DNA of 64,000 nt from Candidatus Uhrbacteria bacterium (GCA_016219925.1 JACRJU010000012.1:6723-70722), one strand, 5' to 3'; numbered from the stretch's first letter, positions 12,803-54,814 are shown. Made by a program: numbers and translations. The notes: a model not told the origin generated them from the letters alone.

Positions 12803-12841
12803 GGTATCAAAAAATTCCGCGTGAGCGAAATTTTTTGATGT

Positions 12842-15428: not shown

Positions 15429-15480
15429 GGGACTCCTTTTCTAAGAGCAGAGAACTCTTAGTGACACGGAGCTTACGGGA

Positions 15481-15516: not shown

Positions 15517-15533
15517 TTGGAAGAAGAGGAGCA

Positions 15534-17909: not shown

Positions 17910-17918
17910 GGAATCCTC

Positions 17919-34029: not shown

Positions 34030-34106
34030 GGGCGCATAGCTCAGTTGGTTAGAGCGTCACATTGACATTGTGAAGGTCAGAGGTTCGACTCCTCTTGCGC
34101 CCACCA
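34030..34106 (+). tRNA. tRNA-Val (anticodon GAC), CCA encoded
   Basis: GGGCGCATAGCTCAGTTGGTTAGAGCG-TCACA-TTGACAT-TGTGA-AGGTC-AGAGGTTCGACTCCTCT-TGCGCCCACCA. Confidence 0.8.
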
Positions 34107-34136
34107 GTTCGCTCACAGGCAGAATGCGGAGAATCT

Positions 34137-37946: not shown

Positions 37947-37953
37947 ATATCTC

Positions 37954-38027
37954 TGTCATCCTGAGCGCCAGCGAAATATTATAAATACTTCTGTCATCTG
38001 TCATCCTGAGCGCCAGCGAAGGATCAC
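37954..38027. repeat. intergenic tandem half-copies of the same repeat family (TGTCATCCTGAGCGCCAGCGAAA ... TGTCATC-TGTCATCCTGAGCGCCAGCGAAGGATCAC)
   Basis: Direct sequence match to the repeat core; lies between the GT4 start (37946) and the GT2 stop (38031). Confidence 0.5.
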
Positions 38028-38030
38028 GAA

Positions 38031-38855
38031 TTATTGCATGCTCGGATGCTTGTACACGATTTGTCCAAACACGTGCACTCGCGCCCATCGTACGATGCAG
38101 ATCGGTAGGATGATCGCCAAAAATGGCTTGATGAGATGAATCGCGCACCAAAGAGGGTAGTCACCTCTTTTAAGAGCGCGCCAACGCGCTCTGAGGGCAA
38201 AGCGGATTTGTTCCTGCTCGTTTTTGAAAGAGATCATGTGTGTGGTCATCCGTTTTTGCATGAGGATGTCCGGGAGGTTTGCAAAGTGTGCCGTAGATGA
38301 GAGGCGGAGCCACAAATCGTAGTCCTGGGCTTTTTTGAACGTCTCGTCATAGCCGCCTGCACGGTCTAATGTTTTTTTTCGGATCATGATGGAACCGTGC
38401 AAGAACGGATTCGTGCGAATGAGGGTTTTGTGGAGCGTCTGAGAATCAGTTATCACCTGAGGTCTGCCGATGATGCGTCCTTCTGCATCGATCCATTCAA
38501 ATGCCGTGCCGACCATATCGATGTCTGGATGCGTATCAAGAAAGGCGATTTGGTTTGCGAGACGTTCTGGGAGCGCGATATCATCCGCATCCATACGGGC
38601 GACATAGTTACCTGTTGCTTGAGTAAGGGCGCGGTTGAGCGACTTAGTGAGCCCAAGGTTTGTGGAGTTGGTGAGCACGCGGATGCGGTCATCTTGTGCG
38701 GCAAGCTCACGCAGGATTTGAGAGGTCGTATCGGTTGAGCCATCGTCGACGATCAAGAGTTCGAAATCGCGAAAGCTCTGCCTAAGCAAACTCAACACCG
38801 CCTCGCGGATAAAGCGATCGCCGTTGAAGACGCAACAGACAAGAGAAACGCGCAT
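38031..38855 (-). CDS. glycosyltransferase family 2 (GT-A)
   Basis: 274 aa; VSLVCCVFNGDRFIREAV...LLIVDDGSTD...ARMDADD (DxD) motifs. Confidence 0.75.
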   Translation of the reverse strand: MRVSLVCCVFNGDRFIREAVLSLLRQSFRDFELLIVDDGSTDTTSQILRELAAQDDRIRVLTNSTNLGLTKSLNRALTQATGNYVARMDADDIALPERLANQIAFLDTHPDIDMVGTAFEWIDAEGRIIGRPQVITDSQTLHKTLIRTNPFLHGSIMIRKKTLDRAGGYDETFKKAQDYDLWLRLSSTAHFANLPDILMQKRMTTHMISFKNEQEQIRFALRARWRALKRGDYPLWCAIHLIKPFLAIILPICIVRWARVHVFGQIVYKHPSMQ

Positions 38856-38890
38856 GTGGGTAAGATACTTTTTTTAAAAAGATGCACATG

Positions 38891-39772
38891 TCAGTTTCTG
38901 GATTTGAAAAGCCGAAACAGTCGAAGAAGTCTATTTTGCAAGAGATACCACTGATGCTTGAACGCGTGCTGTTTCAGGACACGGAGGATTTTTTTGTTGT
39001 TTTCCTTTTCGAATGTCGTCTGTGTTCCAGGAATCGCAAGAACACTGATTCCACGATCTGTGATAGTTAATGTCGTAACGACAAAATGGGCCTTGCCTAG
39101 GAGTCCAACGATAGTTTTCGGGGTAAACATCATCAAATGGATGCTGGAAAAATAATCCGTGACGGCTCTATCTGCACGCATACCGAAAATATTTGGAACC
39201 TCCAGGAACAAGACCCCTTTTTTGTTCAACCGTGCATGGATGTTTTGTAAAAAGTTTAGCGGATCAGGTACATGCTCCAATATGTGGAGCGCAACAATCA
39301 AATCAAATTTTTCATGATGAAAGGTTCGCTCGCTGAAAAATCCAGTTTGTATATTTAATCCAAAGTAGTCGCGGCTATATTTGGAAAATGGAACAGAAGG
39401 TTCGATACCGAAAACATTCCATCCACATTTTTTGAGTTCATTGAGAAAAATTCCGGATGAGCTTCCTATTTCGAGAGCGTTTTCCCCCTCACCTTCTCCG
39501 TAATTTTTTTTTAGCCAAACGATTTTCGATTGTGCGTCCTCTCTTGATACTCTGAAATACTTTTCTGATGTACTAGTTTCAAATTCGCCTTCAACATAGA
39601 AGCGTTTTAATGCTTCACCATCGGGTTGAGGATTTTGAAACGTAAATCCGCATTCTCTGCAAAGGACATATTGAATTTTTGGGCAAGATAATTTTTTGAT
39701 ATATCGGTCTTTTCCATGTCTCAGGAGTACTTGATAGTTTCCAGAATCACAGATGGGACAATTCATATACAT
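38891..39772 (-). CDS. N-terminal zinc-ribbon + class I SAM-dependent methyltransferase (TylC3-like architecture: putative sugar C-/O-methyltransferase), paralog C
   Basis: CPICDSG...CRECGF zinc ribbon then the SAM motif LEIGSSSGIFL and acidic motif II. Confidence 0.65.
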   Translation of the reverse strand: MYMNCPICDSGNYQVLLRHGKDRYIKKLSCPKIQYVLCRECGFTFQNPQPDGEALKRFYVEGEFETSTSEKYFRVSREDAQSKIVWLKKNYGEGEGENALEIGSSSGIFLNELKKCGWNVFGIEPSVPFSKYSRDYFGLNIQTGFFSERTFHHEKFDLIVALHILEHVPDPLNFLQNIHARLNKKGVLFLEVPNIFGMRADRAVTDYFSSIHLMMFTPKTIVGLLGKAHFVVTTLTITDRGISVLAIPGTQTTFEKENNKKILRVLKQHAFKHQWYLLQNRLLRLFRLFKSRN

Positions 39773-39837
39773 GTTTGGAAATTAGGCACGGATTTGGGAT
39801 TTAGTTTGGAACCTATTCGTCTGGAGTTAAATGGTCA

Positions 39838-40808
39838 TTAAATGATCTTATTTACACGAACACGTTCTCGAAATTGTGCGAGTGCTCGACTGATCCAAGG
39901 CAATCGAGATTTTATCAAGATTTTGGCGGGGATGCTGTTGGCGATGTATCGATAGAGAAAGGTGTCTCGGTCATGCCGTCGTTTATACGAATCGATAAGT
40001 GAGTGAATTGCTTCTGGATCATCTCTGTGTTCTAGAGCGATGGTCTCGCCCGGCTTCGCAAGCACACAGATTCCCCGAGGCACATTGCCGGCCGCGATCA
40101 CCTGGAACCCGTGCTGGGCAAGCAGTCGCTCGAGTGTTCGTACAGAGAATACATAGAGATGAGGCATGGCGAAGAAAGAAGTGTAAAAGCTACTTTTTGG
40201 GTGATAGATGTCTGGGACTTCAATATAAAGCAGGCCCCCAGGTTTCAGAACGTCGGAGATATCATTGAGGATGGTTTCTGGCCGTTCGAGGTGTTCAAGT
40301 GTGTGTGAGAGAATAACAAAGTCGAAAGAGTGCTGTGGAAACATTTCGGTCTGAAAGAGCTTCGTTTGAATATTTTTGAGTCCGTATATATCGCGTGCAG
40401 TCCGAGTCATGTTTTTTGACGCCTCCACCCCGTGACACTCCCAACCCTTGGCTTTGAACCGGGAAAGAAAGGCTCCCGTGTTACAGCCGATGTCCAAGAT
40501 GCTTGCGCCAGGAGTATATATAGGCATGTGCTTCGCAATCCAGTCAAACGAATGGTCGGCGTATTCTTCTTTTTTCTTTTGTATCCATCTGAAACAGCTT
40601 GATCTTCTTTGTCGTAGTAGTCATGTGAGTACAGCGCCTCAATTTCGTGCGCTACAAGCGTCGGATTTTGATAGACAAACCCACACTCAGTACAGATGAC
40701 ATATCGCGTCTCTGTCGTGCCGACATTTTTTCCAAATGGGTCTTGTTTGTTTATGAGCAAGGTTTCGCTGGTTGGGTTCTGACAGATGAGACAAGAAGTG
40801 TATTTCAT
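39838..40808 (-). pseudogene. zinc-ribbon + SAM methyltransferase paralog B, interrupted by a frameshift in an A-run between the Zn-ribbon and MTase domains (or a sequencing error / programmed shift)
   Basis: The Zn-ribbon (MKYTSCLICQ...CTECGFVYQNP) sits at the tail of ORF 40407..41810; the MTase domain (…EEYADHSFDWIAKHMPIYTPGASILDIGCNTGAFL…) continues in the -1/+2 frame; the two frames are reconciled by a 1-nt indel within GGATACAAAAGAAAAAAGAAGAATAC (about 40590-40620). Confidence 0.45.
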
Positions 40809-41810
40809 AGCGTTCGTTTTTTTTGCGATGACGTGCAAGTTGTCTCCCAATCCAACCAAATCGCACAGACGCACAAGAGGAAGCAAGAGGCGGTTCACGG
40901 GCCAATTATTTCGAATGGCTCCTGTGGAAAGAGGAATATGCCAGGCGTCACGTACCCAATATTCGATCGAACCAGACCACCCCTTGGTACTTGAGACCGT
41001 GGAGAGATCAAGGACTTCGTAGCCTTCTTGCTCGAGGAGTGTTCGAAGAACACGTGGAGAGAAAAGCAGGTTGTGTCGTGGGGCATCGAGATTAAACCAA
41101 TAGCTTCGAAATATCTGCGCCGCGAGACTCCAGACATTGGGCATATTCATGTACAGGATACCATCCTTTTTTAGGGCCTGACGGACATGAACGAGAAGGG
41201 TGTGCAGATTGTCGAGGTGTTCGAATACTTGGTTGAGAACAACAGCGTCGAATGTTGGTTCAGACCAATGTTCCTCGATAGAGAAGCCTTGTTGCACATC
41301 CAGTCCAAGAACTCGACTTTGTTGGACCATCTGCGGGGCTGGCTCCAGACCATGCACGTGCCATCCAAGATGCCTTTGTATCAGGAGGAAAGTTCCGGCA
41401 CCACTGCCGACATCCAAAAGTTCCTTCCCCTCTCCTGGGTATTTAAGCGGGGTGGCGCGAAAGAGTTTTGTGTAACGCAGGAGGTTATGAATCCAGCGTG
41501 AGAATATTCCTGCGGCAGGAAGGCCCGCAGGGAGACAAAAAACCTCTTGCCAAATTCGGCGACGAATCTGCATCAGCCATTGAGCGCGAGGAGAGAAAGA
41601 AGGGGATTTTATTGGTGCTTCTGTGTGAGAGATGTAGTGGTCATCGTAGTGTTCCTCGTAGGTGTGAGAGGTCGTTTGAGGATGGAGGAAGATCAAACCA
41701 CACGAGAGACAGCGATAGTATCCAGAGTTGACGAGCGGCTTGTTTCTCAAACGGTCTTGGCCGCGGGTCCAGATCCTCGCATTTTGGTCACGACAGGAAG
41801 GGCACGTCAT
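40407..41810 (-). CDS. zinc-ribbon + class I SAM methyltransferase paralog A, reading without a stop into the Zn-ribbon of paralog B (fusion/stop loss)
   Basis: CPSCRDQ...CLSCGLIF zinc ribbon, LLDVGSGAGTFL SAM motif, then ...HVIAKKTNA directly followed in frame by MKYTSCLICQ (paralog B N-terminus). Confidence 0.55.
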   Translation of the reverse strand: MTCPSCRDQNARIWTRGQDRLRNKPLVNSGYYRCLSCGLIFLHPQTTSHTYEEHYDDHYISHTEAPIKSPSFSPRAQWLMQIRRRIWQEVFCLPAGLPAAGIFSRWIHNLLRYTKLFRATPLKYPGEGKELLDVGSGAGTFLLIQRHLGWHVHGLEPAPQMVQQSRVLGLDVQQGFSIEEHWSEPTFDAVVLNQVFEHLDNLHTLLVHVRQALKKDGILYMNMPNVWSLAAQIFRSYWFNLDAPRHNLLFSPRVLRTLLEQEGYEVLDLSTVSSTKGWSGSIEYWVRDAWHIPLSTGAIRNNWPVNRLLLPLVRLCDLVGLGDNLHVIAKKTNAMKYTSCLICQNPTSETLLINKQDPFGKNVGTTETRYVICTECGFVYQNPTLVAHEIEALYSHDYYDKEDQAVSDGYKRKKKNTPTIRLTGLRSTCLYILLAQASWTSAVTREPFFPGSKPRVGSVTGWRRQKT

Positions 41811-41814: not shown

Positions 41815-43347
41815 TTATTTTGTGTTCAAGCGTAGCAGACGATCTGTGATACATCCTACAGCATCTTCAGGATAGTTGACGTAGGTTTTAAGAAAAGTGG
41901 GTATGTGTGACCGTATGAGGGTCTGCGTATGTGGGTCGGTCTGCGATTCCAAAGCGAGAGCGAGCTCTTGTGCGTTATGAGCGCTCCACGCGGCTTGTAA
42001 CGTCACCATGTCCATGTCCGCGACTTCGTCGATATTGAGCAAAATGACGGGGATACCCTGAAGAGCCGCTTCCACGTGTAGGGTTGAGGAGGAAGTGATG
42101 AGTACTTCTGGAAGCTCCAAGAGATCATTGATATTCGACGTAGCTGATCGGATGAAGACATCGTGCTCCAGTTTAAGGCCATGATCACGCACAAGGTTCT
42201 CAAAGAAATTTTTGGCGTCGTAGGGACTTTTAGCTGGATGCGGTGTGATGAGGAGTTTCCAGGTCGTAGAGGTACGTGAAGTGAACTGACGATGGGCGTT
42301 GAGCACGAGCATGCATAGCGCCGCATTCTTTGTGAGATCAAAATGTTGACCTGAAAAGAGAATGAAATGTTGATCTGGCAGAGAGAACTGGGCAAGTCGC
42401 TGTTCTCGGTCTCCTTTTTTTGGAGCAGAAAACAGAGGAGTGAGCGCTGGCGATCCCGTGATGGTGATCCTATTTTCGTCCACGCCGTGATTCACAAAGT
42501 ACTGTTTTGCGCACGATCCCCAGACAAACAGCGAGGAGACAATCGAAGGGGTGTTCACAACTAGATTTTTTGTGGTTTCGTTGGTCACGCCATGTTGGAT
42601 CAAGATTGTGCGGAGATGTTGTTGTTTCGCGCGGGTCAGTATCAGACGTTCGAATGGATGCATTTCTGTCGCTGAAATAACCACCATATCTTCATGGAGT
42701 TCAGTTTTGAGAGCGGCCTCTATTTGGAGGAACCGAGGGGCGTGAAAGAGTAGTTGGCAGAGTGGTTCAAGCATCTGGATTCGTTTTTTCGATGAGAGAA
42801 GCTTGATGGTAGTTTGCCCGAGCATACACAATAGCGACCAAACTTGTTTGAGTGGAACGGATCCTTTTGTAAGATTCACGCAAGGAAGTTTTGGATACCG
42901 GCTCTGCAGGGCTCTGCATTGTCCTGCATCAAAGGTAAATACGCAGACCTTCTCTCCCCGCTCGCTGAGTGATTGGACGACTGGATCGAGTGTTTTCGCG
43001 ATCGCTCCATAGGGAGCATGTTTGGCCAAGAGGAAGGCAAACGTGCGACCTCGAGGATGGTTCAACGGTTCTGCATTTTCTGTGCGTACGCACAGATGTG
43101 CACACTTCCAGAGAGCCGCAACGAGAGATCGAATCAATCGACACCAGGGTCCTCGTTCATTTCCAGACTCGCGACCTTCGCACATCGATAAAAAAACAGG
43201 CAACCGAAGTAGCCCACCATAAGAAATTCCGTTGTGAAGCGTGAGGTCTTTTCCATCCTCGAGGAACCAGTGGTCGGCGAATTCTAGACTCCAGGAGGCG
43301 GTCGCCTGTCGTGTTGATGCATCAAAAGTGGGGATTCTAGGCGTCAT
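41815..43347 (-). CDS. hypothetical GT-B-like capsule/teichoic-type polysaccharide biosynthesis protein (possible CDP-glycerol glycerophosphotransferase-, KpsC- or sialyltransferase-like transferase)
   Basis: 510 aa; C-terminal half with a Rossmann-like pattern (HGVTNET...ITGSP...LITPHP...) reminiscent of the TagF/capsule-biosynthesis families; assignment is weak. Confidence 0.35.
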   Translation of the reverse strand: MTPRIPTFDASTRQATASWSLEFADHWFLEDGKDLTLHNGISYGGLLRLPVFLSMCEGRESGNERGPWCRLIRSLVAALWKCAHLCVRTENAEPLNHPRGRTFAFLLAKHAPYGAIAKTLDPVVQSLSERGEKVCVFTFDAGQCRALQSRYPKLPCVNLTKGSVPLKQVWSLLCMLGQTTIKLLSSKKRIQMLEPLCQLLFHAPRFLQIEAALKTELHEDMVVISATEMHPFERLILTRAKQQHLRTILIQHGVTNETTKNLVVNTPSIVSSLFVWGSCAKQYFVNHGVDENRITITGSPALTPLFSAPKKGDREQRLAQFSLPDQHFILFSGQHFDLTKNAALCMLVLNAHRQFTSRTSTTWKLLITPHPAKSPYDAKNFFENLVRDHGLKLEHDVFIRSATSNINDLLELPEVLITSSSTLHVEAALQGIPVILLNIDEVADMDMVTLQAAWSAHNAQELALALESQTDPHTQTLIRSHIPTFLKTYVNYPEDAVGCITDRLLRLNTK

Positions 43348-43351: not shown

Positions 43352-44053
43352 CTAAAGTGTCACGTATCGGTCGTTCCACTCTGCCAAGATGAGCTCCGCT
43401 AAGCGAAGTTCGTCCTGTGTATGGATGTCCACGGTCATATTGAGATCATCAAATTCGTGAATGCACACATGGGGACCCAGTCGTTCGCCTTGGGCCATGT
43501 AGGTGGCTTTCGTACAGGTGATGAGTCCACTATAACAGATGTAGATTTGATCGGGCTTGAGTTGGCGTACGGTGAATCCACTGTCCAGACGTTGGAGACC
43601 TTCCATCGTTCGTCTCCAAACGGACTTATGTTCACGCACGCCACTGATGACTGAATCGAATCCACCTAAGAGCATCGCATCAATGGCTTCGTCCAAAAAA
43701 GCAGGTGGTCGCACAGGCCGTGTCGGATCGACAAAACAGATGTACTCGATGGAGGGGTCTTGTTCTAGGAGGATATTGGTCATATAGGCGAATGTATCCT
43801 CAAGGCGAATGTGATCCTGTGTGAGGGTTTCCGGAAGCAAACAAGGAATTTCGGCTCCATACGAAGCAGCGATATCCGCAATTTGTGAGTCATCCGTGGC
43901 GACAATAATACGCCCAATCCGATTGGATCTTTTTGCAGCAGCGATCGCGTACGCAATGAGAGGATGACCATGAAGGGATTGAAGGTTCTTTTTCATCAGA
44001 CCTTTTGAACCACCTCGGGCCGGGACGATCGCAACAATATTTGGAGTCTTCAT
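43352..44053 (-). CDS. acylneuraminate (nonulosonate/CMP-Kdo-type) cytidylyltransferase
   Basis: 233 aa; N-terminal IVAIVPARGGSKGLMKKN motif and the C-terminal dimerisation region typical of NeuA/KdsB-family CMP-sugar synthetases. Confidence 0.75.
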   Translation of the reverse strand: MKTPNIVAIVPARGGSKGLMKKNLQSLHGHPLIAYAIAAAKRSNRIGRIIVATDDSQIADIAASYGAEIPCLLPETLTQDHIRLEDTFAYMTNILLEQDPSIEYICFVDPTRPVRPPAFLDEAIDAMLLGGFDSVISGVREHKSVWRRTMEGLQRLDSGFTVRQLKPDQIYICYSGLITCTKATYMAQGERLGPHVCIHEFDDLNMTVDIHTQDELRLAELILAEWNDRYVTL

Positions 44054-45459
44054 AGACCGATCTCATGACGTTTGAAGAATAGATGTTTTGCCATTTCCCG
44101 TTGGGTATCTTCTTGAATATCCAAAAGGGAGAGTGCATGGTCAAGTTGAACAACGGCAACGGATTCACCGAGTCGAGCGCCGGCATGAATGAAGGTGGTT
44201 TTCGTGATGCAACCCAGACCCGTGTATCCCATCCAAAGCGGATCTTTCTGTGCGTGTTTCACAAAGCCACTATCCTTGCGAGCGAAGATTCCATCTTCCA
44301 ATGCCCATACAGCTCGGTACTCTTTTTTGGCGACAAAGACCGAATCTTCCTTTTCAATCAAAGATTTTTTGATGAGAGCATCTATTAGTTCAGCGGTCCG
44401 GAACACGTGGGTTCCCTTAAAAAAGAGTACATGAGAAGGGGTAAATCCGCAGGACACTTCCTCTTGTGCGAGCGTGGTCTGTAAGACTTCTTCTAAGGAA
44501 GCCGTTGGGCCATTAAACATTGGGGTCAAATAAAAGAACGTTTTGAATCCGTGCAGACGTGCCCGTTCAAGGGCTACTGGATGTTTGCTTGCCACAACGA
44601 CTCGACGGACGAGAGTGGCACGCGCAATCTCACCAAGGACGTGATCTAAGAACGACTGGTCTGACCCGTAGGGAGTTTCGAGTAAAAGCTCGGTATCTTC
44701 GTCACTCAACGGCAGGATGGTGAGGATCTGTTGTGCGCCATCCCAAGCAAGTTGTCGATCTACTTCTTGAGAGGAGACGGAAGAGGGTTCCAGTTGTTCT
44801 AAAATTCTGACGGTTGTTTCACATCGACCAACGTTCCCATATTGGTGAATACCATGATGATGGTAAACACAGGCCTCCGGTTCGTACACGACGGCGAACC
44901 CGCGTTCTTGTACAGCCTTCGTCCATAGCCGGTCTTCAATATTGGTTGCGGTCTCGTCAAACGGGGTGTGTTCCCAGACACCGCGGCGAATGATGGAGTT
45001 TGCATTATGGAAAAAGTTATCCTTCCGCTGGATTTTCTTCTCTGGCCCGAACGTAATGAGGAGGTCGCGTTTATCAAACGGAGAAGATTCTGGAAGAGGA
45101 AGTTGACGCCCATAGACCCCGGCGATCTGGTTGTCCTGTGAAAGGGTGGTGACAAGTTGTTCGAGCCATGTGGAATCCGCTGGGACAGCATGGGCAGACA
45201 AGAGAACCAAAAAAGACCCTTGTGAAGCACGGATGCCAGCGTTGAGGGCTTGCCCGGGGCGATACGGGGAGACTTCATGGGAGATCATTTGGCAGGGAAA
45301 TTTCTTTGCAATTTCAAGCGTGCGATCCGTCGACCCCGTGTCAACCACAATCACTTCACGATTCTGATAGGTCTGGGTTTCGATGGCGCTGAGTGTACGT
45401 CCGATCCAGGCCTCCTCGTTCTTGGTTCGGATGATGATGGAGACGAGCGATTGGGTCAT
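44050..45459 (-). CDS. bifunctional protein: N-terminal GT2 glycosyltransferase fused to a C-terminal NeuA/KdsB-like cytidylyltransferase domain
   Basis: N-terminus [10 protein letters not shown]...VVDTGSTD (GT2). The C-terminal ~230 aa align by eye with the neighbouring NeuA-like protein (…[49 protein letters not shown] versus …KPDQIYICYSGLITCTKATYMAQGERLGPHVCIHEFDDLNMTVDIHTQDE). Confidence 0.6.
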
Positions 45460-46382
45460 AGCGTCCTGCCAACGGCTGGTGCGATAGATCGTACATCCTT
45501 CATGAGTGTGTTGAATGCTTCAAAATTTAGGGCCTGGAGCGGATCTACCCACGCCACTTCGGGGGTAGGATGAACGTCGATCAGAAGTCCATCAGCACCC
45601 CCAGCAATCGCCGCGCGGCTCATGGCGCACACATACGATCGTTTGAAGGTTGAATGACTTGGGTCGGCGATGACTGGAATCGTTGGAGCGTATTCGTTCA
45701 GAGCGACGATGGCTTGGATATCCAAGATGGCTCGTGAGGCCGTGTTGTGTGTATGAGGGACGGCCACCCCGCGTTCACACACGACGATATTGGTTTTTCC
45801 TCGAGCGTAAAAATGTTCCACCACCCCCAAGAGACTTCGAATGGATTCACCGGCATGGCGCTTTAAGAGCACGGGTTTGGAGGTGTGACACAGACGGTAG
45901 AGCAAGTCCATGTTAAACATCGATCGATAGCCAACTTGGTACATGTCGACATACGGCTCCATCAAGTCGATCGCGTCGGCAAAGGTGGGTTCTGAAACGA
46001 TCGGGAGCCCCACGGATTTTCCTGCCTCCGCAAAATAGACAAATCGTGATTCTGCGCGTTCGAGGACTTCTTTTTTTGAAAGAATGTGGGTGCGTGGCAG
46101 ATCTTCTCCGTCACTTCCCGCGTCCGCAAGCAGCAAAGGATCTCCATACGGAAAGGTGAGAGGTTTGAATACGCCACCTCGTAAGATTGTCGCCCCCGCA
46201 TCTTTTACTGCCTTGGCGATGGCGAACACCTGTTCGCGACTTTCGACCGTGCACGGTCCGGCCATAATCGTGAGGGTCTCTCCGCCGACTTGTGTATTCC
46301 CAACAATCACAGGACGTTTGGATCCCTGAACATTCGAGAGAGGGAGGTTATTTTGAAGATCTGTTTCGCTGATGTCCTTCAT
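45456..46382 (-). CDS. 3-deoxy-7-phosphoheptulonate (DAHP) synthase, type I-beta / KDO8P-synthase family
   Basis: 308 aa; motifs [19 protein letters not shown](L)T(F)PY, CERGV and ADPSHS match I-beta DAHPS better than KdsA; start overlaps the upstream stop. Confidence 0.6.
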
Positions 46383-46391
46383 AGCATGTGG

Positions 46392-47306
46392 TTAGACAGA
46401 TGACATGATAGTTTTTACGGAGGTCTGTGGAACTGGGTTCCTCATCCCCGAGGCCGCTTTTTCAAAGGCGATAACGGCTTGTTTGAGATTCATCTCTTTT
46501 CCGTTGAGTGTGTGTGCTCCGTGTTCACGGGCGAAGCGCAAGAGAGGAGTTTCCAGAGGCTGGTAGATGACATCAAAGACGAAATTGGTCGGGCGCAGGG
46601 ATGCCAGGGCCTCAACATCGATCGGCGACTGATTTTCTTGTCCAGATCCGTTGAAACCCAGCGTGGTAGCATTCACGATGATATCAGCATGGGCAACGAC
46701 TTCCGAAGAGATCGGCCAGGCAACGACTGCTGTTGGACAGATAGACTCCACTTTTTGTTGGAACGCCCTGGCGGTATCCAACGTCCGATTGGCGATAAGA
46801 AGTTTTCCTTGTGAGCCGATTGCTCGCGCGAGATATACCCCGACGGCTTGCCCAGCCCCGCCGAGTCCCATGAGCAGAACGGTTTTTCCTGCGATCGGTC
46901 CGGCGTGGAATTCGAGACTCTCTCGTGCAGCCGCTCCATCCGTATTTGCGCCCACAAGCCTTCCGTCTCGACGGTAGAGGGCATTGACGGCACCAATCAA
47001 CCGAGCTTCTTTTTCAACCTCGTCCAAAAAAGCACTTATCGTCTGTTTGTGTGGTGTGGTCACGGCTCCTCCGACAAATCGTAGGTCGTTTTTGAGTTCC
47101 TTAACGACCTCGTGGAGATATTCAGGGGCAACATCCATTGCGTGCATCTTGGCCGAGATCCCCAGGCCTGCGAATGCGGCATTCCACAGAAGGGGAGAGC
47201 GAGCGCCTTTGGAAGGGTGTGCCCCCAAGATGGCCGCATAGGAAGTTGTGGCATCAAGGTCGAGCGTCTCTCGGTTCTCTACATGCGTGAGTATAACCTG
47301 CGCCAT
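46392..47306 (-). CDS. aroE: shikimate/quinate dehydrogenase family (AroE-like)
   Basis: 304 aa; SKSP-type substrate motif (HPSKGARSPLLWNAAF), VTTPHK, GAVNAL, GANTDG and the GAGG NADP-binding motif. Confidence 0.7.
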   Translation of the reverse strand: MAQVILTHVENRETLDLDATTSYAAILGAHPSKGARSPLLWNAAFAGLGISAKMHAMDVAPEYLHEVVKELKNDLRFVGGAVTTPHKQTISAFLDEVEKEARLIGAVNALYRRDGRLVGANTDGAAARESLEFHAGPIAGKTVLLMGLGGAGQAVGVYLARAIGSQGKLLIANRTLDTARAFQQKVESICPTAVVAWPISSEVVAHADIIVNATTLGFNGSGQENQSPIDVEALASLRPTNFVFDVIYQPLETPLLRFAREHGAHTLNGKEMNLKQAVIAFEKAASGMRNPVPQTSVKTIMSSV

Positions 47307-47309
47307 AGG

Positions 47310-48380
47310 TTAGGTTGAGGGATTCCCCAAGCGAGCCGAACGAACTTGTTCATTCACAGGTACCCACGCGTGGTCTTCCGCACTTTTATACAAGGCGTGG
47401 ACGATGCGAACACTTGCAAGCGCGTCCGCGGGAGTGACAGGGGGATCGATGCGTCCAGCATTGAGTCGGTCAAATGTTTCCTGGAGCAAAGGGCCATGCG
47501 AGAGACCATATCCATTCGGAACGGCTTGCGAGTAGGTGCTGGGAGTTTCTTCATCCCCAGCCTGCTTGTGTGTGAACACCCATCCAACGATGGTGTTAAG
47601 TGCGACGCCGCTAATCTGGGCGGACCCGTGTTCCCCCACAATAGAGAGAGAGGCCTCTTTGTCTTCCGGCCGAGCGGCGGTTGTGACTTCAATCGTGCCA
47701 AGTCCGCCGTGTTCAAATCGGACAAGGGCAACGGTCGTGTCTTCAGCTTCAAGTCGGTTGAGGGCATTTTGTTGTGCGCTTACCACCTCCTTGATCGGGC
47801 CACAGATCCATTGCAGGGCATCGATGTGGTGGATAGCTTGTTGGCTGATGACCCCACCGTCCATCTTCCACGTCCCATGCCATCCATCCTCATAGTAATC
47901 TTGATAGCGGCACCAAATCACACGAGCGCTTCCTAAAACTTGTTTTCCAAAACGACCAGAATCCACGGTCTGTTTAAGATGGGCGATTGCGGGGTTGAAT
48001 CGGTTCTGTTTAATCGCGGCGTACATCAGTTTTTTTTGTGCGGCCAAGGCGATGTTCTCTTTGACCTCCTGAGGAAGCAGGCCAATGGGTTTTTCCACGA
48101 TCACGTGTTTCCCGGCGTTCAGAGCCTCACGCGCATGTACACCATGTTTTCCTGATTCTGTGAGAACGAGCATCACGTCGACATTAGGGTTTTGGAGTAT
48201 TTCGTTGAGGTCGTACACAGCGGTAGCTCCAAGGCGTTGAGCCATCGCATCCGCCTTTTCTTTTACGAGGTCACAGGTGGAAACAACCTGTACCCCATGT
48301 ATTCCTTTTTCGAGAAATTGAGCAATGTGGCTGGCGACCCGACCACATCCAAGAAGGGCCAAACGTTGCATAGTTTTCAA
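47310..48380 (-). CDS. Gfo/Idh/MocA-family NAD(P)-dependent oxidoreductase
   Basis: 356 aa; N-terminal Rossmann LALLGCGRVASHIAQ, EKP motif (HVIVEKPIGL) and the C-terminal alpha/beta domain. Confidence 0.75.
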   Translation of the reverse strand: MKTMQRLALLGCGRVASHIAQFLEKGIHGVQVVSTCDLVKEKADAMAQRLGATAVYDLNEILQNPNVDVMLVLTESGKHGVHAREALNAGKHVIVEKPIGLLPQEVKENIALAAQKKLMYAAIKQNRFNPAIAHLKQTVDSGRFGKQVLGSARVIWCRYQDYYEDGWHGTWKMDGGVISQQAIHHIDALQWICGPIKEVVSAQQNALNRLEAEDTTVALVRFEHGGLGTIEVTTAARPEDKEASLSIVGEHGSAQISGVALNTIVGWVFTHKQAGDEETPSTYSQAVPNGYGLSHGPLLQETFDRLNAGRIDPPVTPADALASVRIVHALYKSAEDHAWVPVNEQVRSARLGNPST

Positions 48381-48437: not shown

Positions 48438-50216
48438 TCATTCTAAGACGCTCATGCGGGAAAAATAAGAGTTTGAATTCTGAAGGAGCTCCTGTGGAGT
48501 TCCTTCTTCTCCTATACATCCATCTGTCATGGCCAAGACTCGATCCGCCGTGCTTAAAAGGGAAAGACGATGCGTCACCATGATGATAGTGACCGTCCCC
48601 TTGAGTGAGCGAATAGTTTCATGGATTCGTTTTTCGGAATCGTTATCAAGGGCGCTCGTTGCTTCGTCGAGAATCAGGAGCTCTGGTCGGCACGCGAGCG
48701 CGCGAGCCAAGACGACTCGTTGTCGCTGTCCCGTTGAGAGACCAGCACCGAATTCACCAATCTCTGTATCCAAACCGTCTTTCAGCGTCTGGACGAACTC
48801 ATCGACGTGGGCCAGGCTTACCGCCCACGCCACGTCTTCGTCACTGACGGTTTCGTCATAAAAGCGAATGTTTTGTCGGATGGTTCCACGAACAAGAAAC
48901 AGATCCTGGGGGACATAGGCGACTTTTTTTCTCCATTGGTTCACGTCGATTTCCTGAATGGGTTGTTGATCTATCGTGATCTCGCCGGCTTGTGGGGTGA
49001 TGAGTCGTAGCAGGAGGTCTACGAGAGTGGTCTTCCCGGACCCGGACGGTCCAATGATGCCAACTGCTTCTCCTTTTTTGACCCGGAAGGTAATTTCAGA
49101 CAGAGTTTGTTTTTCTTCCGAGTAGTTGAAACGAATATGTTGACAGATAAGTTCCTTCTGGAAGAGAAATGGGTTTTGGCCAGACGGATATTCTTTGTGT
49201 GTTTCGGCGAGACTTCGGTAGTGCAGATTGCTCTCAAGGTGGGGAATTTGGTCGCTGATTTTTTGAACCTTGTCTTGTATGGCCTCGATATTTTTGAAAA
49301 TTTGGTGAACCAGATACATCGTGACGGCGAATGCGCTGAATTGAAAGTTCGATAATTTGTAGACGAGGGCAAATATGATCAGAACAAAGATGACAATGGC
49401 CGGCTGAGAAAAGATCGTCCCCAGTCCCGAGTAGACGAACAACTTGATGCGAGCCATTTTAAGTGCGCGAAAAATGTCGTCCGAGGAATCGATGACGAGG
49501 GAGGGGGTGGCACGTGTTTTGAATGATTTGATGCCGATGAGAGTCTGGTTGATCATGTGGGCAATCCGCTTGTTGTTTTCCGTGAATGTTCGGGAGATGG
49601 AGGCTGTTTTTCGATAGATCGGTTTGAACGCGAAGAAGAAGACGGCGCCTCCAGTCAGGGCGGTCAGTGTCACGGACCAGGAGATGCTCAGTGCAATGAG
49701 TGAGTAGATGATGAGGTTTGTTATAGCCAAGATGGCATTGCTAGAGTTTTTCAGAAGAGCGGTCGACGTGGCGATGTCCGAGGTCATGACTTGATCTAGG
49801 TATCCAATTTTTTGGTGGGTAAGGAAGAGCCAATCGGCTTGAAGGAGCTTTTTAAAGAGCGCGGAACGCTCGGTATATTCATACGCCGCGGTTATTCTGG
49901 CATTGATATAATGAAACAGAAAGAGCAAACCTGCTTTGAGGACGAAGAGCGTCGAAATAAAGAGGAAGAGATTTTTGACGGTAAGGGCGATATGGAGGAA
50001 CGAAAAAAAGTCGGTAATGTTTTCTGTGATGAAGTTTGCTTGGATGGAGGCATCCTGGAGGACAATCCCCAAGAGGGGGATCAGGGCGTTAATCCCGACT
50101 CCTTCCAGAAGGGCTCCGAAAATTCCCAGGAGGACCAGGACAGCCAGTTTTTTTTTGTAGCGCTTAAATCCACTTAGGATTACGCGGATAAGGTGGGGGA
50201 GAGCAGATGATTTCAT
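48438..50216 (-). CDS. ABC exporter, fused permease + ATPase (MsbA/PglK-like lipid or lipid-linked-glycan flippase type)
   Basis: 592 aa; 6 TM then Walker A GPSGSGKTT, LSTGQRQR signature, Walker B ILILDEATSALD. Confidence 0.8.
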   Translation of the reverse strand: MKSSALPHLIRVILSGFKRYKKKLAVLVLLGIFGALLEGVGINALIPLLGIVLQDASIQANFITENITDFFSFLHIALTVKNLFLFISTLFVLKAGLLFLFHYINARITAAYEYTERSALFKKLLQADWLFLTHQKIGYLDQVMTSDIATSTALLKNSSNAILAITNLIIYSLIALSISWSVTLTALTGGAVFFFAFKPIYRKTASISRTFTENNKRIAHMINQTLIGIKSFKTRATPSLVIDSSDDIFRALKMARIKLFVYSGLGTIFSQPAIVIFVLIIFALVYKLSNFQFSAFAVTMYLVHQIFKNIEAIQDKVQKISDQIPHLESNLHYRSLAETHKEYPSGQNPFLFQKELICQHIRFNYSEEKQTLSEITFRVKKGEAVGIIGPSGSGKTTLVDLLLRLITPQAGEITIDQQPIQEIDVNQWRKKVAYVPQDLFLVRGTIRQNIRFYDETVSDEDVAWAVSLAHVDEFVQTLKDGLDTEIGEFGAGLSTGQRQRVVLARALACRPELLILDEATSALDNDSEKRIHETIRSLKGTVTIIMVTHRLSLLSTADRVLAMTDGCIGEEGTPQELLQNSNSYFSRMSVLE

Positions 50217-50220: not shown

Positions 50221-51297
50221 TCAAGCGGGGATTTCTTTGAGGGGCTGTAGAGCTTGTATTGGAAGTAGATGCTTGAGCATACTCAATCCCCAGACAAACA
50301 TCACGGTACCATGAATATCTGGTTCGTTCAGACCGAGGCTTACCTTTGCGCTGTAATAGCGTTCATTTGCCCGACCTTGATGAAATGAGAAGCCACCAAG
50401 TTCAGAATAAAAATAGGCTCGCCATTGGTCGAGTGCTTCCAGGCAGAACGACTGGAGATCTTCCTGTCGGTAGCGGCCGTCGAGGAGTTGGTTGCTGTGA
50501 CGTAGAACGAAGACTTGATTTATTTGGTCACAGGCGTCGTCCGTGTTGTAAGTATGTTTGGTCAGACACAGGTCGATGAGACGATCGGGGTGATCAAAGG
50601 GGAGGGGGTCAACCATAAGTCCCGAGATCACCTTCATAGCCCCATTGATTTTTTGGCGGTGCGATGGATTCCCCACGTACCACGCGCCGTCCTTATGCTG
50701 GAGAGAGGCGATAAACGTGACGGCGGTATCTCGTGCTTGTCGGTACGTTGCTTCGTCGATTCGATTCGCCTTTCGCATCAGCGTAAGAAAAAACATCAGA
50801 TGGCTAAAATGACTTCCCGCGCCCCAAGGGTGAGACCAATCCAGACGGGAGAGGAATCGGTGAATGTCTGCAGGAGTCGTTGGGACATCGGTGAGGATGT
50901 GTTTTGGAATGACATCGTAAAGAAGCAGGGCACAGTAGGCTTGTCTGGTTTCCGCGCGAATGTATCCAGCGTTCCCTAAATTATGAAGGTCCCCTCGTTT
51001 CAAGTTCGATAAGACATGGCGCACGAGCCTTCTTCTTGCGACGAATGGATCAGAGAAGGTTCCATCAGATTGTTGAAAGGAAAGAATTCGATCGATCGTG
51101 GGTTGGATCTTGGACGGATCTGTTTCTCCAAACATCGCAAAGAGTTTGAGCGCGAAGACGCTTCCGGCCAGATTTGATCTGGCGTAATTCGTGAACACAT
51201 CACTTGTCAGTGAGTAACGATAGTATCCATCCGTTTCGTGGAGCTTCTCAAGGAAGGATAGTGTTTTTGGTTTAAGCATGCTCAGCCAGTCTGTCAT
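50221..51297 (-). CDS. alpha/alpha-toroid protein with QxxDG(x)W-type repeats (prenyltransferase/terpene-cyclase-like or glycoside-hydrolase-like fold), hypothetical
   Basis: 358 aa; FQQSDGTF and LQHKDGAWY motifs; no signal peptide. Confidence 0.35.
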   Translation of the reverse strand: MTDWLSMLKPKTLSFLEKLHETDGYYRYSLTSDVFTNYARSNLAGSVFALKLFAMFGETDPSKIQPTIDRILSFQQSDGTFSDPFVARRRLVRHVLSNLKRGDLHNLGNAGYIRAETRQAYCALLLYDVIPKHILTDVPTTPADIHRFLSRLDWSHPWGAGSHFSHLMFFLTLMRKANRIDEATYRQARDTAVTFIASLQHKDGAWYVGNPSHRQKINGAMKVISGLMVDPLPFDHPDRLIDLCLTKHTYNTDDACDQINQVFVLRHSNQLLDGRYRQEDLQSFCLEALDQWRAYFYSELGGFSFHQGRANERYYSAKVSLGLNEPDIHGTVMFVWGLSMLKHLLPIQALQPLKEIPA

Positions 51298-52430
51298 AGA
51301 GTTGTTCCTTTCGTGTTGAGATGAGAAACAATCGCAAACAGATTGTTTACATACCGATTCCAGGTAAGGTGCATGAGGGCAGTCCGTCGTGCATAGATCC
51401 CAACTTCAGCTCTTCGTTCTGGGTGCTCGATCAGAAAGAGCATCGCCGTAAGGAGTTCGAGTTCATCTTCGGGTTTCACCAAAAAACAATTTATCCCGTT
51501 TTGTAAGTGGTAGCCATTTTTTATGGCCCCTGTTTGGCTCACAAGAACTGACTTACCCATTGCCATACCTTGAAGAAGAGTTGTGGTTCCGCCAGAGTAA
51601 GAGTTTTCCTTCAATGGAATAACGACAAAGAGTGCTTGTGCGATGAGGGTCTTTACTTCTGGAAAAGGAATATCCGTCATGGTTCGGATATTTTTTGGGA
51701 GAGTTCTCCAGGTTTGCTTCAGTTGGGCTAATCGTCGTGCGGTCGTCACAATGAGGATATCGCTGGGGATTTTATTGGCGATTTTGACGAGGAGATCAAA
51801 GTCCCTATTTGGATCTGCTCCGATGCAAAGGATAAACGTATCGGATGCTTTTGTGGGTGTAGGTTTGAAGTAGTTTGTATCTACCCCAAATGGGATAAAG
51901 GTAATCGCTGAAGCCATGGAAGGAAGGAGCTGTTGTAATTTTTCTTTTTCTTCAAACCCGTAACAGATGATTTTGTTTACGCATCTTTTGAAGGCGGCTC
52001 TGTACAATTTTGGCATGCCGTATCGGAGTTGTTGGAGTCGTTCCAGTAACCCGATGCTGATATAGATAATAGGTCGTCTTGGGATAACTCGAGCGTAAGT
52101 CAAAAGGACAAGAGGGAGTCCGACCCGGTCAGCCGTCGAGAGGACAACATCAGAGTTCGCGATACGCCTTCGAAGCTTGATCACTTTGTACCAAGACCCT
52201 CCGACTCCCCCCAAGACAGACCAGCAGATGTTTATAAATCGGTCTGTAATCCTCCCGAAGATTCCTTTCTCAATTTTTTCGCAGATGTCGAAATCGTTTA
52301 CCGTCTCATGGCCATAATTTGACGCGACATCCATTCCATAATGATCATAAAATTGTCCGACAAATCGACCATCGTTTCTTCGCGTTGGTTTTCGTAAGGT
52401 GGAATTTGGAAACAGATAGAAAATTTTCAT
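51294..52430 (-). CDS. glycosyltransferase, GT-B fold (family-1/4-like)
   Basis: 378 aa; C-terminal GGTTTLLQGMAMGKSVLVSQ donor-binding-type motif; overlaps neighbours by 4 nt. Confidence 0.55.
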   Translation of the reverse strand: MKIFYLFPNSTLRKPTRRNDGRFVGQFYDHYGMDVASNYGHETVNDFDICEKIEKGIFGRITDRFINICWSVLGGVGGSWYKVIKLRRRIANSDVVLSTADRVGLPLVLLTYARVIPRRPIIYISIGLLERLQQLRYGMPKLYRAAFKRCVNKIICYGFEEKEKLQQLLPSMASAITFIPFGVDTNYFKPTPTKASDTFILCIGADPNRDFDLLVKIANKIPSDILIVTTARRLAQLKQTWRTLPKNIRTMTDIPFPEVKTLIAQALFVVIPLKENSYSGGTTTLLQGMAMGKSVLVSQTGAIKNGYHLQNGINCFLVKPEDELELLTAMLFLIEHPERRAEVGIYARRTALMHLTWNRYVNNLFAIVSHLNTKGTTL

Positions 52431-53038
52431 ACTTTCTCCGCCACGATCTTCATCATCATCGTTTTATCATGGTGCGGAAAGTCATACTCCTGTTCCAGGA
52501 TATGAGTGAACCCTACATCCTGTAGAAGTAATTTGTATCTTTCAAAATCAACAATGCACAAGTGTATATCATATTCATCCTTGAGTGCGCCATGGAGATA
52601 CCGAAGAACCATATCGTCACAGCCGTTGATGTGGTAGTAGGAAACTATTTTTTTAAGTGACGGGATTCCTAGTTCAACTATTCCATGTGTTTTTAACACG
52701 CGATTGAACTCCCCTAATATTTTTTTTGAATCGACGATATTAAAATGCTCTAAGGTTGCAATAGAGACGATGTTATCGATTGATTCTGTTTCAAAAGGAA
52801 GGGGGTTGTGAAGATTGGTTACAACATCAACGGTTGGATAGTCCAGGATATCGACATTGAGATATTTCGGATTCAGGGGATGTTTTCCCCCACAAATTTC
52901 AAGAACTTTTTTTTCTTCATTTTGAAACATCCTAAGTTTATAGGTACGTTTCAAGCGAACAACGTTTCGGCTAATTGGATTCTTGGAGGCAAGGATAGAG
53001 AGAAGACTCTTTTTTAGGACTGTGAAGAATTTTTTCAT
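52427..53038 (-). CDS. class I SAM-dependent methyltransferase (Methyltransf_11/23-like)
   Basis: 203 aa; VLEICGG SAM motif, acidic motif II, VSIATLEH motif. Confidence 0.6.
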   Translation of the reverse strand: MKKFFTVLKKSLLSILASKNPISRNVVRLKRTYKLRMFQNEEKKVLEICGGKHPLNPKYLNVDILDYPTVDVVTNLHNPLPFETESIDNIVSIATLEHFNIVDSKKILGEFNRVLKTHGIVELGIPSLKKIVSYYHINGCDDMVLRYLHGALKDEYDIHLCIVDFERYKLLLQDVGFTHILEQEYDFPHHDKTMMMKIVAEKV

Positions 53039-53781
53039 ACGGCAAGATGCGCGACGACAACATAATATCTTGGTTCATATCCTGCCCCAAAGGGGATAAC
53101 TTCCGCACTCTGTGTTCGGTCATAGATCGCAAAACGATGTCCCCTAAGTCGTTCCAGAAAAGAGATCGATTTTCTTACAAGAACATTGGATAAAATCTTT
53201 CTTCTCACTCTTTGTCCACGAATAGCAGTCGCCTGAAACCCATGCTGATGTAACAGATCAATGAGCTCGTTCAGACGATACTCTCTAAAGTGATGGGTAT
53301 TTTTAGGAGTGATCGACCCTGGAGAGGTGATGCGTTTATTGGGGGTCGAAATAATCAGTGTGCCGGACGGTTTTAGTAGGCGGTACAATTCTTTTAGATA
53401 GAGATCTCTTTCATGATCATTCAGATGCTCAATAGTCTCGAAAGATACGATTACATCAAAAAATTTTTCTTCAAAGTTTAGGTTGGTCGCATTCCCGCAT
53501 CGGTACTCAAGCCTTTGGCCCGAGTAGTGTTGTTTTGCATAGTTGATAACATCCTGAGACAAGTCGACTCCGTAGACAAAAAAAGCTCCAACCTCTCCCA
53601 TCATTTTTGTTCCATAACCGACCCCACAAGCTACATCTAGAACCGTTTTTCCTTTAACAAAATCTTTCGCGAATTGATATCGAGCCAGATGTTCTTCTTC
53701 GGTTTTTTCAGGGGACTTTCCGGGGATCATTTGTTCACCGGAAAAAAGAATGTTTTGAGGTGAGGGCATAGGTGAGATCAA
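53035..53781 (-). CDS. class I SAM-dependent methyltransferase
   Basis: 248 aa; VLDVACGVGYGT, DLSQDV, VVSFETIEHL motifs. Confidence 0.75.
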   Translation of the reverse strand: MISPMPSPQNILFSGEQMIPGKSPEKTEEEHLARYQFAKDFVKGKTVLDVACGVGYGTKMMGEVGAFFVYGVDLSQDVINYAKQHYSGQRLEYRCGNATNLNFEEKFFDVIVSFETIEHLNDHERDLYLKELYRLLKPSGTLIISTPNKRITSPGSITPKNTHHFREYRLNELIDLLHQHGFQATAIRGQRVRRKILSNVLVRKSISFLERLRGHRFAIYDRTQSAEVIPFGAGYEPRYYVVVAHLAV

Positions 53782-54808: not shown

Positions 54809-54814
54809 ACATCC

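Follow-up and report, generated by a model that had tools for sequence, protein, structure and literature searches.

A DAHP-synthase-like aldolase in a glycan operon of Candidatus Uhrbacteria points to a probable mobile cassette for CMP-activated ulosonic acids

The window analysed here is a stretch of 64,000 nucleotides (nt) from Candidatus Uhrbacteria, a bacterium of the Candidate Phyla Radiation (CPR), in which positions 43352 to 48380 hold five tightly packed open reading frames (ORFs) in succession, all on the minus strand. Their combination poses the question of why relatives of two shikimate-pathway enzymes, 3-deoxy-D-arabino-heptulosonate 7-phosphate synthase (DAHPS) and shikimate dehydrogenase (AroE), should be encoded in a glycan operon together with a Gfo/Idh/MocA oxidoreductase (hereafter Gfo), a protein joining a family 2 glycosyltransferase (GT2) to a NeuA-fold domain (GT2-CT), and a cytidylyltransferase (CT). 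An earlier note, made from the sequence alone, had taken the block for a module that builds a ulosonic acid and activates it with cytidine monophosphate (CMP), rather than for one of aromatic biosynthesis. That view is backed by synteny, by loss of the arginine of the KPRT loop from the DAHPS-like aldolase (DL), by the placing of DL in a clade of its own, by scores below curated cutoffs and by the swapping of one accessory enzyme pair for another. The best reading, supported by comparative genomics, is that the cassette around this DAHPS-derived synthase is a dedicated, mobile ulosonic-acid module, separate from aromatic biosynthesis. To the fuller proposal, that the five genes together with the gene for the protein p510 and two precursor genes form a horizontally spread cassette making a CMP-activated 3-deoxy-2-ulosonic acid for a lipid-linked surface glycan, we assign a probability of roughly 0.78. 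No description of this cassette was found in the searchable literature.

Gene order and conservation of the cassette

The five consecutive genes with overlapping or adjacent ends that the earlier note described were confirmed: ATGA start/stop overlaps were read directly at DL/GT2-CT (45459-45456) and GT2-CT/CT (44053-44050), and the remaining junctions are gaps of 3 and 9 nt. The family assignments made by that reader agree with Pfam. Within the block the minus strand holds no terminator-like site, promoter and terminator matches occurring at the chance level given by shuffling, and the block belongs to a long glycan operon that spans positions 61232 to 36804 of the minus strand (Table 1). The statement that the window holds no other shikimate genes also stands, as none was found outside the cassette among all non-overlapping ORFs of at least 150 amino acids (aa).

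A pattern and tblastn scan of one genome per species (185,579 species genomes) returned 138 copies of DL. CPR carriers are Uhrbacteria, Parcubacteria, Saccharibacteria and Staskawiczbacteria; other carriers are Omnitrophota, Desulfobacterota, Elusimicrobia, Margulisbacteria, Dehalococcoidia, Acidobacteriota, Planctomycetota, a nanoarchaeon, SAR11 Pelagibacteraceae, SAR324, Azospirillum and Thalassobaculum. At 83 loci the neighbourhoods were compared by tblastn and by clustering of their ORFs; those of Azospirillum and Thalassobaculum, high in GC, gave ORF lists too noisy for annotation by eye. The same partners recur, and the cassette always lies next to genes for glycan synthesis. Partners were counted at the 51 loci where DL is flanked on each side by 5 kb or more: CT lies beside DL in 45 of these, GT2 in 44, the AroE-like gene in 41 and Gfo in 35. 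Synteny of DL with CT and GT2 spans more than ten phyla, and a phosphoenolpyruvate (PEP) aldolase, a CMP-transferase and a glycosyltransferase are co-located in glycan clusters across taxa. The order in Desulfovibrio mangrovi is Gfo, AroE-like, DL, CT, acetyltransferase, GT2-CT, and in Margulisbacteria the cassette has Maf flagellin-glycosylation genes on one side and a NeuB/CMP-transferase pair on the other.

Among the annotated recurrent neighbours of the 83-locus set there is no shikimate gene, and the conserved set and its recurrent neighbours include no HAD or other phosphatase. The conserved set likewise contains no aminotransferase or N-acetyltransferase, and the product is therefore not expected to be a 5,7-diamino sugar. 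When DL was compared by tblastn with 72,556 plasmids, only canonical aroF genes were found, at 33-40% identity.

One locus stands apart in its label: CAZELN010000020.1 (L004), filed as uncultured Gammaproteobacteria, has the same operon, with p358, the ATP-binding cassette (ABC) exporter, cassette and p510, and its proteins are 69-94% identical to those of the window. In all likelihood this contig comes from a CPR bacterium and was binned by mistake with a gammaproteobacterial metagenome-assembled genome.

The aldolase and its cytidylyltransferase partners

DL possesses the (beta/alpha)8 DAHP_synth_1 domain (PF00793, 131.1 bits against a cutoff of 25.5) and carries the motif ADPSHS. Its closest solved relatives are the type I-beta DAHPS of Pyrococcus furiosus (1ZCO), Aeropyrum pernix (1VS1) and Thermotoga maritima (1RZM), with phmmer E-values of about 1e-46 to 1e-49, and it shares 33-40% identity with canonical aroF products by tblastn. 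In common with these enzymes it has the fold, a Cys/His/Glu-or-Asp/Asp metal site and the Lys and Arg residues that bind PEP: the metal ligands C44, H243, D269 and D280 align with those of 1ZCO, D269 being Glu in most relatives, and so do the PEP residues K73, R153, K174 and R204. The protein nevertheless falls below the curated I-beta DAHPS cutoffs (TIGR01361, 221.9 against 267.75; PRK08673, 258.8 against 335; PRK12595, 187 against 279), and also below those for 3-deoxy-D-manno-octulosonate 8-phosphate synthase (KDO8PS; TIGR01362, 66.9 against 314, with 45-72 bits across the KDO8PS models) and for NeuB-type synthases (PF03102, 18.7 against 22.1, with no SAF match; PseI, 17 bits against 340).

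The acceptor loop differs as well. The arginine of KPRT in DAHPS, or of KANRS in KDO8PS, binds the phosphate of the aldose phosphate. The earlier note had proposed deciding between these two loops, and DL has neither, presenting a third state, KPLTFPY, where DAHPS has KPRTSPY; both the Arg and the Ser are thus lost. The Leu is invariant in 18 of 18 aligned members and recurs in every further DL sequence examined, and KPLTFPY is found in 123 of the 269 proteins gathered by homology searches, the remainder mostly having KPRTSPY or a close variant. Relative to the P. furiosus and A. pernix enzymes, DL also has an insertion of 22-25 aa after this loop, a PHT insertion, and the changes GAR to GYR, KRG to KRH and ALSD to AWVD. 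Because the PEP and metal residues are retained and the acceptor loop is remodelled, the acceptor is probably not erythrose-4-phosphate.

Phylogeny, which the earlier note had suggested for this 308-aa protein, gave the same picture. In a neighbour-joining tree with bootstrap, rooted on E. coli KdsA, the DL family is nested within the type I-beta DAHPS radiation as a clade of its own, apart from KDO8PS and with KdsA as a distant outgroup; the 308-aa subfamily has 98% support and the KPLTFPY clade as a whole 62%. Of the two lineages that the note left open, DAHPS I-beta is the one that scores and tree retain, and KDO8PS the one they reject. An exhaustive search of representatives returned scores in steps, from 427 bits in DL's own 50% cluster through 274 in a sister subfamily of about 286 aa to about 190 for canonical enzymes. 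The nearest relatives of the clade have loops reading KPATFPY or KPCTFPY, and since the gene for one such sister-clade protein (P0125, KPATFPY) also has a CT on one side and a GT2-CT fusion on the other, in the company of radical-SAM enzymes, the whole Arg-less branch appears tied to CMP-sugar genes.

A variation in the metal site was observed within the family: the ligand Cys of AGPCxVE is Asn (AGPNxVE) in 34 of the 83 DL proteins (loci L049-L082, for example SAR11 Pelagibacteraceae, Azospirillum, Thalassobaculum, SAR324 and Methylomirabilota), whilst the window DL retains Cys44. The same Cys/Asn switch separates metal-dependent from metal-independent KDO8P synthases; to our knowledge it has not been described before within the DAHPS lineage.

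CT belongs to CTP_transf_3 (PF02348, 72.1 bits against 22.6) and has an intact N-terminal cytidine triphosphate (CTP) loop, PARGGSKG, conforming to PxRxxSK(G). It is closest to NeuA and PseF, then KdsB (PDB NeuA 9FTB, E 1e-21, with other CMP-Neu5Ac and CMP-Kdo synthetases also matched), although it reaches neither the PseF equivalog cutoff (102.1 against 205.7) nor those of the KdsB models (34-46 bits against 155-281). The 469-aa protein downstream of DL consists of a GT-A-type GT2 domain (residues 1 to about 235; Glycos_transf_2, 89 bits) and a NeuA-fold domain (about 245-469), the latter 23% identical to the neighbouring CT by BLASTP (E 4e-14). Its AlphaFold2 model (mean predicted local distance difference test score, pLDDT, 88.8) was searched with Foldseek, which related the N-terminal domain to GT2 enzymes and the C-terminal domain to CMP-Kdn and CMP-Neu5Ac (CMP-sialic acid) synthetases, with TM-scores normalised to the target of 0.76-0.82. 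The two cytidylyltransferase domains of the earlier note are accordingly both of NeuA fold, but only that of CT has an intact loop, the second reading PLSDEDTE in place of PARGGSKG. The GT2 half is very conserved and the NeuA-like half poorly so. Because several genomes encode a stand-alone GT2 beside a single CT, the extra domain looks like a degenerate CT duplicate; NeuA and KdsB enzymes are dimers, and by analogy the domain may serve as a docking or hand-off module. A recurring pair of a GT2/NeuA-like fusion and a separate CT was also seen in L087, L088, L090 and one JGI contig, where its neighbours are HMGL-like, DHDPS-like and Ldh_2 genes, B12-radical-SAM enzymes and sulfotransferases, which suggests a broader, uncharted family of CMP-acid-sugar pathways.

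The protein encoded directly after CT, p510, most resembles hydrolysing epimerases of the NeuC/GNE type and, weakly, the BFO_1060 family of nonulosonic-acid (NulO) transferases (PMC5420450). The protein was not filed under Epimerase_2, its profile comparison with E. coli WecB being weak (43% probability). Since no WecB/NeuC-like gene was detectable in the 83 loci, a NeuC-type hydrolase would lie outside the general cassette.

Accessory enzymes, the proposed route and its alternatives

Gfo contains the N- and C-terminal GFO_IDH_MocA domains of Pfam, and every NCBIfam equivalog is far under its cutoff. Among solved structures, 3Q2I and 3Q2K are by far the nearest to it, matching residues 6-342 with E-values of 1.5e-60 and 3.6e-60 where the next matches reach 1e-21. 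We take both to be WlbA UDP-N-acetylglucosaminuronate 3-dehydrogenases, and this kinship suggests that Gfo may oxidise C3 of a carboxylated nucleotide sugar. Unlike the WlbA/WbpB systems, the cassette includes no aminotransferase such as WbpE and no WbpD acetyltransferase, and has the AroE-like reductase instead.

The AroE-like protein has the two-domain AroE fold (Shikimate_dh_N, 69 bits in Pfam) and lies below the cutoffs of all 18 AroE/YdiB models, including TIGR00507 (180.3 against 200.2). Across 60 cassette copies, in E. coli AroE numbering, the catalytic dyad K65/D102 is kept in 58, and S16, N86, Y215, Q244 and the NRT motif are retained, so that most carboxylate ligands are present; Ala takes the place of S14 in 53 copies, N59 has given way to Ala or Ser in the majority, and the full shikimate-ligand set (S14, S16, N59, T61, N86, Y215, Q244) is not matched. 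Its relatives in the PDB include the AroE-family 5-ketofructose reductase 7COK, a solved precedent for a keto-sugar reductase of this family. With 7COK, YdiB and SdhL it has in common the fold and the Lys/Asp dyad of enzymes acting on substrates beyond 3-dehydroshikimate, a keto-sugar among them, but it differs from them in the S14-to-Ala and N59-to-Ala/Ser signature and in gene context.

In nine loci the Gfo and AroE-like pair is absent and two other proteins take its place. Those of locus L002 pass the curated cutoffs of two enzymes of Thermotoga-type inositol catabolism, IolO (5-keto-L-gluconate/D-tagaturonate epimerase; 330.6 against 300) and IolB (5-deoxy-glucuronate isomerase; 221 against 205). 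No locus has both pairs. The IolO/IolB-like genes lack further iol genes in their vicinity, and their position between GT2-CT and DL-CT implies recruitment into biosynthesis. Both pairs could tailor carboxylated sugars in a manner consistent with inversion of a hexuronate at C3, Gfo and the AroE-like protein by oxidation and re-reduction, and the IolO/IolB-like proteins by aldose-to-ketose isomerisation followed by C3 epimerisation.

Precursors may be supplied by the two genes that open the operon. The first encodes a short-chain dehydrogenase/reductase (SDR; Pfam Epimerase/GDP_Man_Dehyd) matching PDB 5U4Q (E 4e-105) and 6ZL6/6ZLA (E 4e-58) and carrying the motif DNFNDYYEPSLKEA, also given as DNFNDYYEPSLK. 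It is adjoined by a short nucleoside-diphosphate (NDP)-sugar dehydrogenase related to UDP-glucose dehydrogenase (UGDH), which has partial N-terminal and central UDPG_MGDP_dh domains only (TIGR03026, 161 bits against 189.8). SDR homologues lie directly upstream of the cassette in a compact, gapless operon of Saccharibacteria (L028: Wzx, short UGDH, SDR, AroE-like, Gfo, DL, GT2, CT) and in one of Parcubacteria (L022), which has the same layout by ORF positions and tblastn. The short UGDH is 268 aa long at L028 1483-2289, and a counterpart was recognised at L022 6322-7128 by ORF length, position and tblastn only; an interpretation of the window gene as a pseudogene was rejected, the short form (268-284 aa) standing beside SDR in three CPR operons.

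In the pathway we propose, DL, descended from type I-beta DAHPS, would join PEP to some aldose that is not erythrose-4-phosphate. The pair of Gfo and AroE-like protein would oxidise and then reduce a carboxylated sugar, inverting one hydroxyl. CT, whose family and motif are plain, would join the presumed product to CMP; p510, the GT2 protein or both would transfer the sugar, and, to judge from gene context, an ABC flippase would export the glycan for ligation. The more specific version that we favour takes a hexuronate as the acceptor and a CMP-activated nine-carbon dicarboxylic acid, 3-deoxy-non-2-ulosaric acid, as the product, which we consider tentative and on balance unlikely. There the short dehydrogenase and the 4-epimerase-like SDR would turn UDP-glucose into UDP-glucuronate and then UDP-galacturonate. 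Inversion of C3 by Gfo and the AroE-like protein and release of the free hexuronate would follow, and DL would add PEP before activation by CT. The exact outcome of this route, a free acid C9H14O10 of 282.059 Da and a CMP adduct of 587.100 Da from a C3-inverted hexuronate such as guluronate, is a doubtful prediction.

The overall logic, with tailoring of an NDP-sugar, a free aldose, PEP condensation, CMP activation and a dedicated transferase, is shared with the nonulosonic-acid pathways (NeuC/NeuB/NeuA, Pse and Leg); CT is nearest to NeuA and PseF, and some genomes have NeuB and Maf genes along with the cassette, but DL is not of NeuB type and has no SAF domain. The Kdo pathway (KdsD/KdsA/KdsC/KdsB) likewise pairs a PEP-dependent alpha-carboxyketose synthase of the DAHP_synth_1 superfamily with a CTP_transf_3 enzyme for a surface-glycan sugar, and part of the DL family has the KDO8PS-type switch from Cys to Asn at the metal site. 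The cassette aldolase nonetheless groups with I-beta DAHPS and not KdsA and has KPLTFPY and not KANRS, and the cassette encodes neither a KdsC-type phosphatase nor a KdsD isomerase, containing instead the redox or isomerase pairs and GT2.

The choice of acceptor is where an alternative bears most directly on this scheme. Should DL use a phosphorylated aldose (a pentose-5-phosphate, tetrose-4-phosphate or hexose-6-phosphate isomer) to make a sugar phosphate resembling Kdo, DAH or Kdn, the phosphate would have to be removed by a phosphatase from an unlinked gene. Gfo and the AroE-like protein would then act on the free ulosonic acid and invert one hydroxyl of its ring, at the pyranose-ulosonate C4 that is the counterpart of quinate C3. 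DL does descend from a sugar-phosphate enzyme, keeps the Thr of the KPxT loop and has conserved basic residues on hand; the AroE-like pocket is largely quinate/shikimate-like and fits a pyranose ulosonic acid; and NeuA, PseF and KdsB, the nearest relatives of CT, are enzymes of free ulosonic acids. We nevertheless hold this course to be possible but rather unlikely, given that the phosphate-binding Arg is Leu in all DL sequences examined, that no phosphatase recurs among the neighbours, and that the IolO/IolB-like pair handles non-phosphorylated, open-chain uronates and would have no obvious substrate after condensation. A carbocyclic sugar, either a cyclitol or a shikimate- or quinate-like unit attached to the glycan after CMP activation, is highly improbable. 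The juxtaposition of AroE-family and DAHPS-family proteins does recall the first and fourth shikimate steps, the top NCBIfam match of Gfo is the inositol 2-dehydrogenase IolG (116 bits, far under the cutoff of 355), and the variant cassette encodes proteins like IolB and IolO. Yet neither a dehydroquinase nor a sugar-phosphate cyclase, DHQ-synthase-like or other, was recognised in the window or in those recurrent neighbour clusters that were annotated, and with no carbocycle-forming enzyme among them the cyclitol reading, which the earlier note had entertained, is unsupported. NeuA-type cytidylyltransferases, moreover, activate the anomeric hydroxyl of 2-keto-3-deoxy acids, which such a carbocycle would lack. 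Least credible of all is that DL and the AroE-like protein are ordinary aromatic aroF and aroE products that lie in a glycan operon by chance, as the public annotation of both proteins, their preserved catalytic residues and their top PDB matches to genuine DAHPS and AroE enzymes would have it. This is opposed by the synteny with CT and GT2 in more than ten phyla, the loss of the Arg that binds the phosphate of erythrose-4-phosphate, the scores of both proteins under curated cutoffs, the interchange of the AroE-like gene with IolO/IolB-like genes, the 64 kb free of further shikimate genes, and translational coupling to the glycosyltransferase and cytidylyltransferase; CPR bacteria, besides, typically lack amino-acid biosynthesis.

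Several points weigh against our proposal of a cassette for a CMP-activated ulosonic acid. The order of steps is uncertain because AroE enzymes bind small acids and not nucleotide sugars. The newly conserved R97, R113, H176, H210/H212 and K247 of DL could still bind phosphate, and a phosphatase could be encoded elsewhere, outside the conserved set. SDR and UGDH genes accompany the cassette in about 10-24 of the 83 loci, a minority, and are commonplace in glycan clusters of any kind, so that the support they lend is modest. The role of p510 is ambiguous, as it may transfer the CMP-sugar or, in the manner of NeuC, hydrolyse an NDP-sugar. Finally, the GT2-CT family is also found without DL, beside HMGL-like, DHDPS-like and Ldh_2 proteins that are candidate acid-sugar synthases, which leaves several roles to consider: transfer of the CMP-sugar to a conserved acceptor has a little less than an even chance, release of a free aldose from an NDP-sugar is a weaker candidate, and some other function is unlikely.

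If a CMP-activated ulosonic acid is indeed the product, microbes that are very abundant or little known are predicted to bear a hitherto unrecognised acidic sugar, akin to sialic acid or Kdo, on their envelopes, which are surfaces of phage and host contact as well, and an AroE-fold enzyme will have been recruited to glycan synthesis. Were the product a nonulosaric acid, a sugar class not yet described would be present on the surfaces of CPR, SAR11 and many uncultured lineages, and inversion of a hexuronate at C3 would have been achieved by two non-homologous pairs, Gfo with the AroE-like protein or the IolO-like with the IolB-like protein. The sugar may be sought in cultured carriers, namely Desulfovibrio mangrovi, Thalassobaculum fulvum and Azospirillum spp. 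The family also offers a natural experiment in which a DAHPS scaffold shifts both acceptor specificity, through loss of the loop Arg, and metal dependence, through Cys-to-Asn replacement in 34 of 83 members, and the constant partnership of CT and GT2 or GT2-CT with several types of synthase hints at a wider family of CMP-acid-sugar pathways. Because public records name DL "3-deoxy-7-phosphoheptulonate synthase" and the AroE-like protein shikimate dehydrogenase, a partial shikimate pathway could be credited in error to CPR, DPANN, SAR11 and other uncultured groups when their metabolism is reconstructed.

The surrounding operon and other features of the window

The operon is transcribed in the order SDR, short dehydrogenase, GT4/GT1 glycosyltransferases and methyltransferases, p358, ABC exporter, cassette and p510, followed by further methyltransferases, GT2 and GT4 (Table 1). 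The exporter scores 297 bits with the HepA family and 224 bits with PglK, both under cutoff, and is kept upstream of the cassette in CPR loci L004-L007.

Table 1. Positions of the cassette, the operon that contains it and the flanking genes, in nucleotides of the window
Feature	Position	Strand	Length	Remarks
Bac_transf initiating phosphoglycosyl transferase	34095..35441	+		Pfam, 216 bits; flanks operon
Three S-adenosylmethionine (SAM) methyltransferases, one GT2, one GT4	36804..41810	-		Pfam; downstream part of operon
p510, CPR-restricted GT-B-fold protein	41815..43347	-	510 aa	4 nt downstream of CT
CT, NeuA/PseF-like predicted CMP-ulosonic-acid synthetase (CTP_transf_3)	43352..44053	-	233 aa	
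GT2 (GT-A) with degenerate NeuA-fold C-terminal domain	44050..45459	-	469 aa	
DL, DAHPS-like metal-dependent PEP aldolase	45456..46382	-	308 aa	proposed ulosonic-acid synthase
AroE-like (shikimate-dehydrogenase-like, NADP-type)	46392..47306	-	304 aa	candidate keto-sugar-acid reductase
Gfo/Idh/MocA oxidoreductase, WlbA/WbpB-like	47310..48380	-	356 aa	TTG start; candidate sugar 3-dehydrogenase
ABC exporter, MsbA/PglK/HepA-like	48438..50216	-		Pfam ABC_tran and ABC_membrane; candidate flippase of lipid-linked glycan
p358 alpha/alpha-toroid protein, GT1/GT4 glycosyltransferases, methyltransferases	50221..59448	-		Pfam; upstream part of operon
Short NDP-sugar 6-dehydrogenase-like protein (short UGDH), without C-terminal domain	59414..60268	-	284 aa	
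SDR, UDP-glucuronate 4-epimerase-like	60270..61232	-		first gene of operon; candidate precursor supply
Wzy_C/O-antigen-ligase-like membrane protein with TPR	61298..63325	+		Pfam Wzy_C, 53.6 bits; candidate ligase/O-oligosaccharyltransferase; flanks operon

The p358 protein (50221-51297, 358 aa) shows only faint matches to prenyltransferase/squalene-cyclase alpha/alpha-toroids, and in CPR loci L004-L009 it is again encoded next to the cassette and the ABC exporter. Elsewhere in the window, the ORF at 31729-32280 was considered as a shikimate kinase on account of a secondary SKI match (34.9 bits) and rejected; it scores just over the cutoff of TIGR02173 (105.5 against 102.1), and is thus a (d)CMP kinase of archaeal type, here in the genome of a CPR bacterium. 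Positions 25231-26514 encode a protein of 427 aa that contains a T4SS-pilin domain. Positions 14199-18884 form an island of high GC content (0.62-0.67, against about 0.50 in the rest of the window) with genes for a phosphopentomutase-like protein, a 791-aa aldehyde dehydrogenase and deoC (over its curated cutoff), and it looks like a foreign block for nucleoside and deoxyribose salvage. A second, separate glycan gene set occupies 3455-12937 and comprises three GT4 genes, a Bac_transf/CoA_binding_3 transferase and DUF4012 and DUF11 proteins. The longest ORF for that transferase (11357-12937) is overlapped at its 5' end by a bacterial RNase P RNA (12840-13297, 149.6 bits), and because of this overlap the true start of the gene probably lies downstream of 12840.

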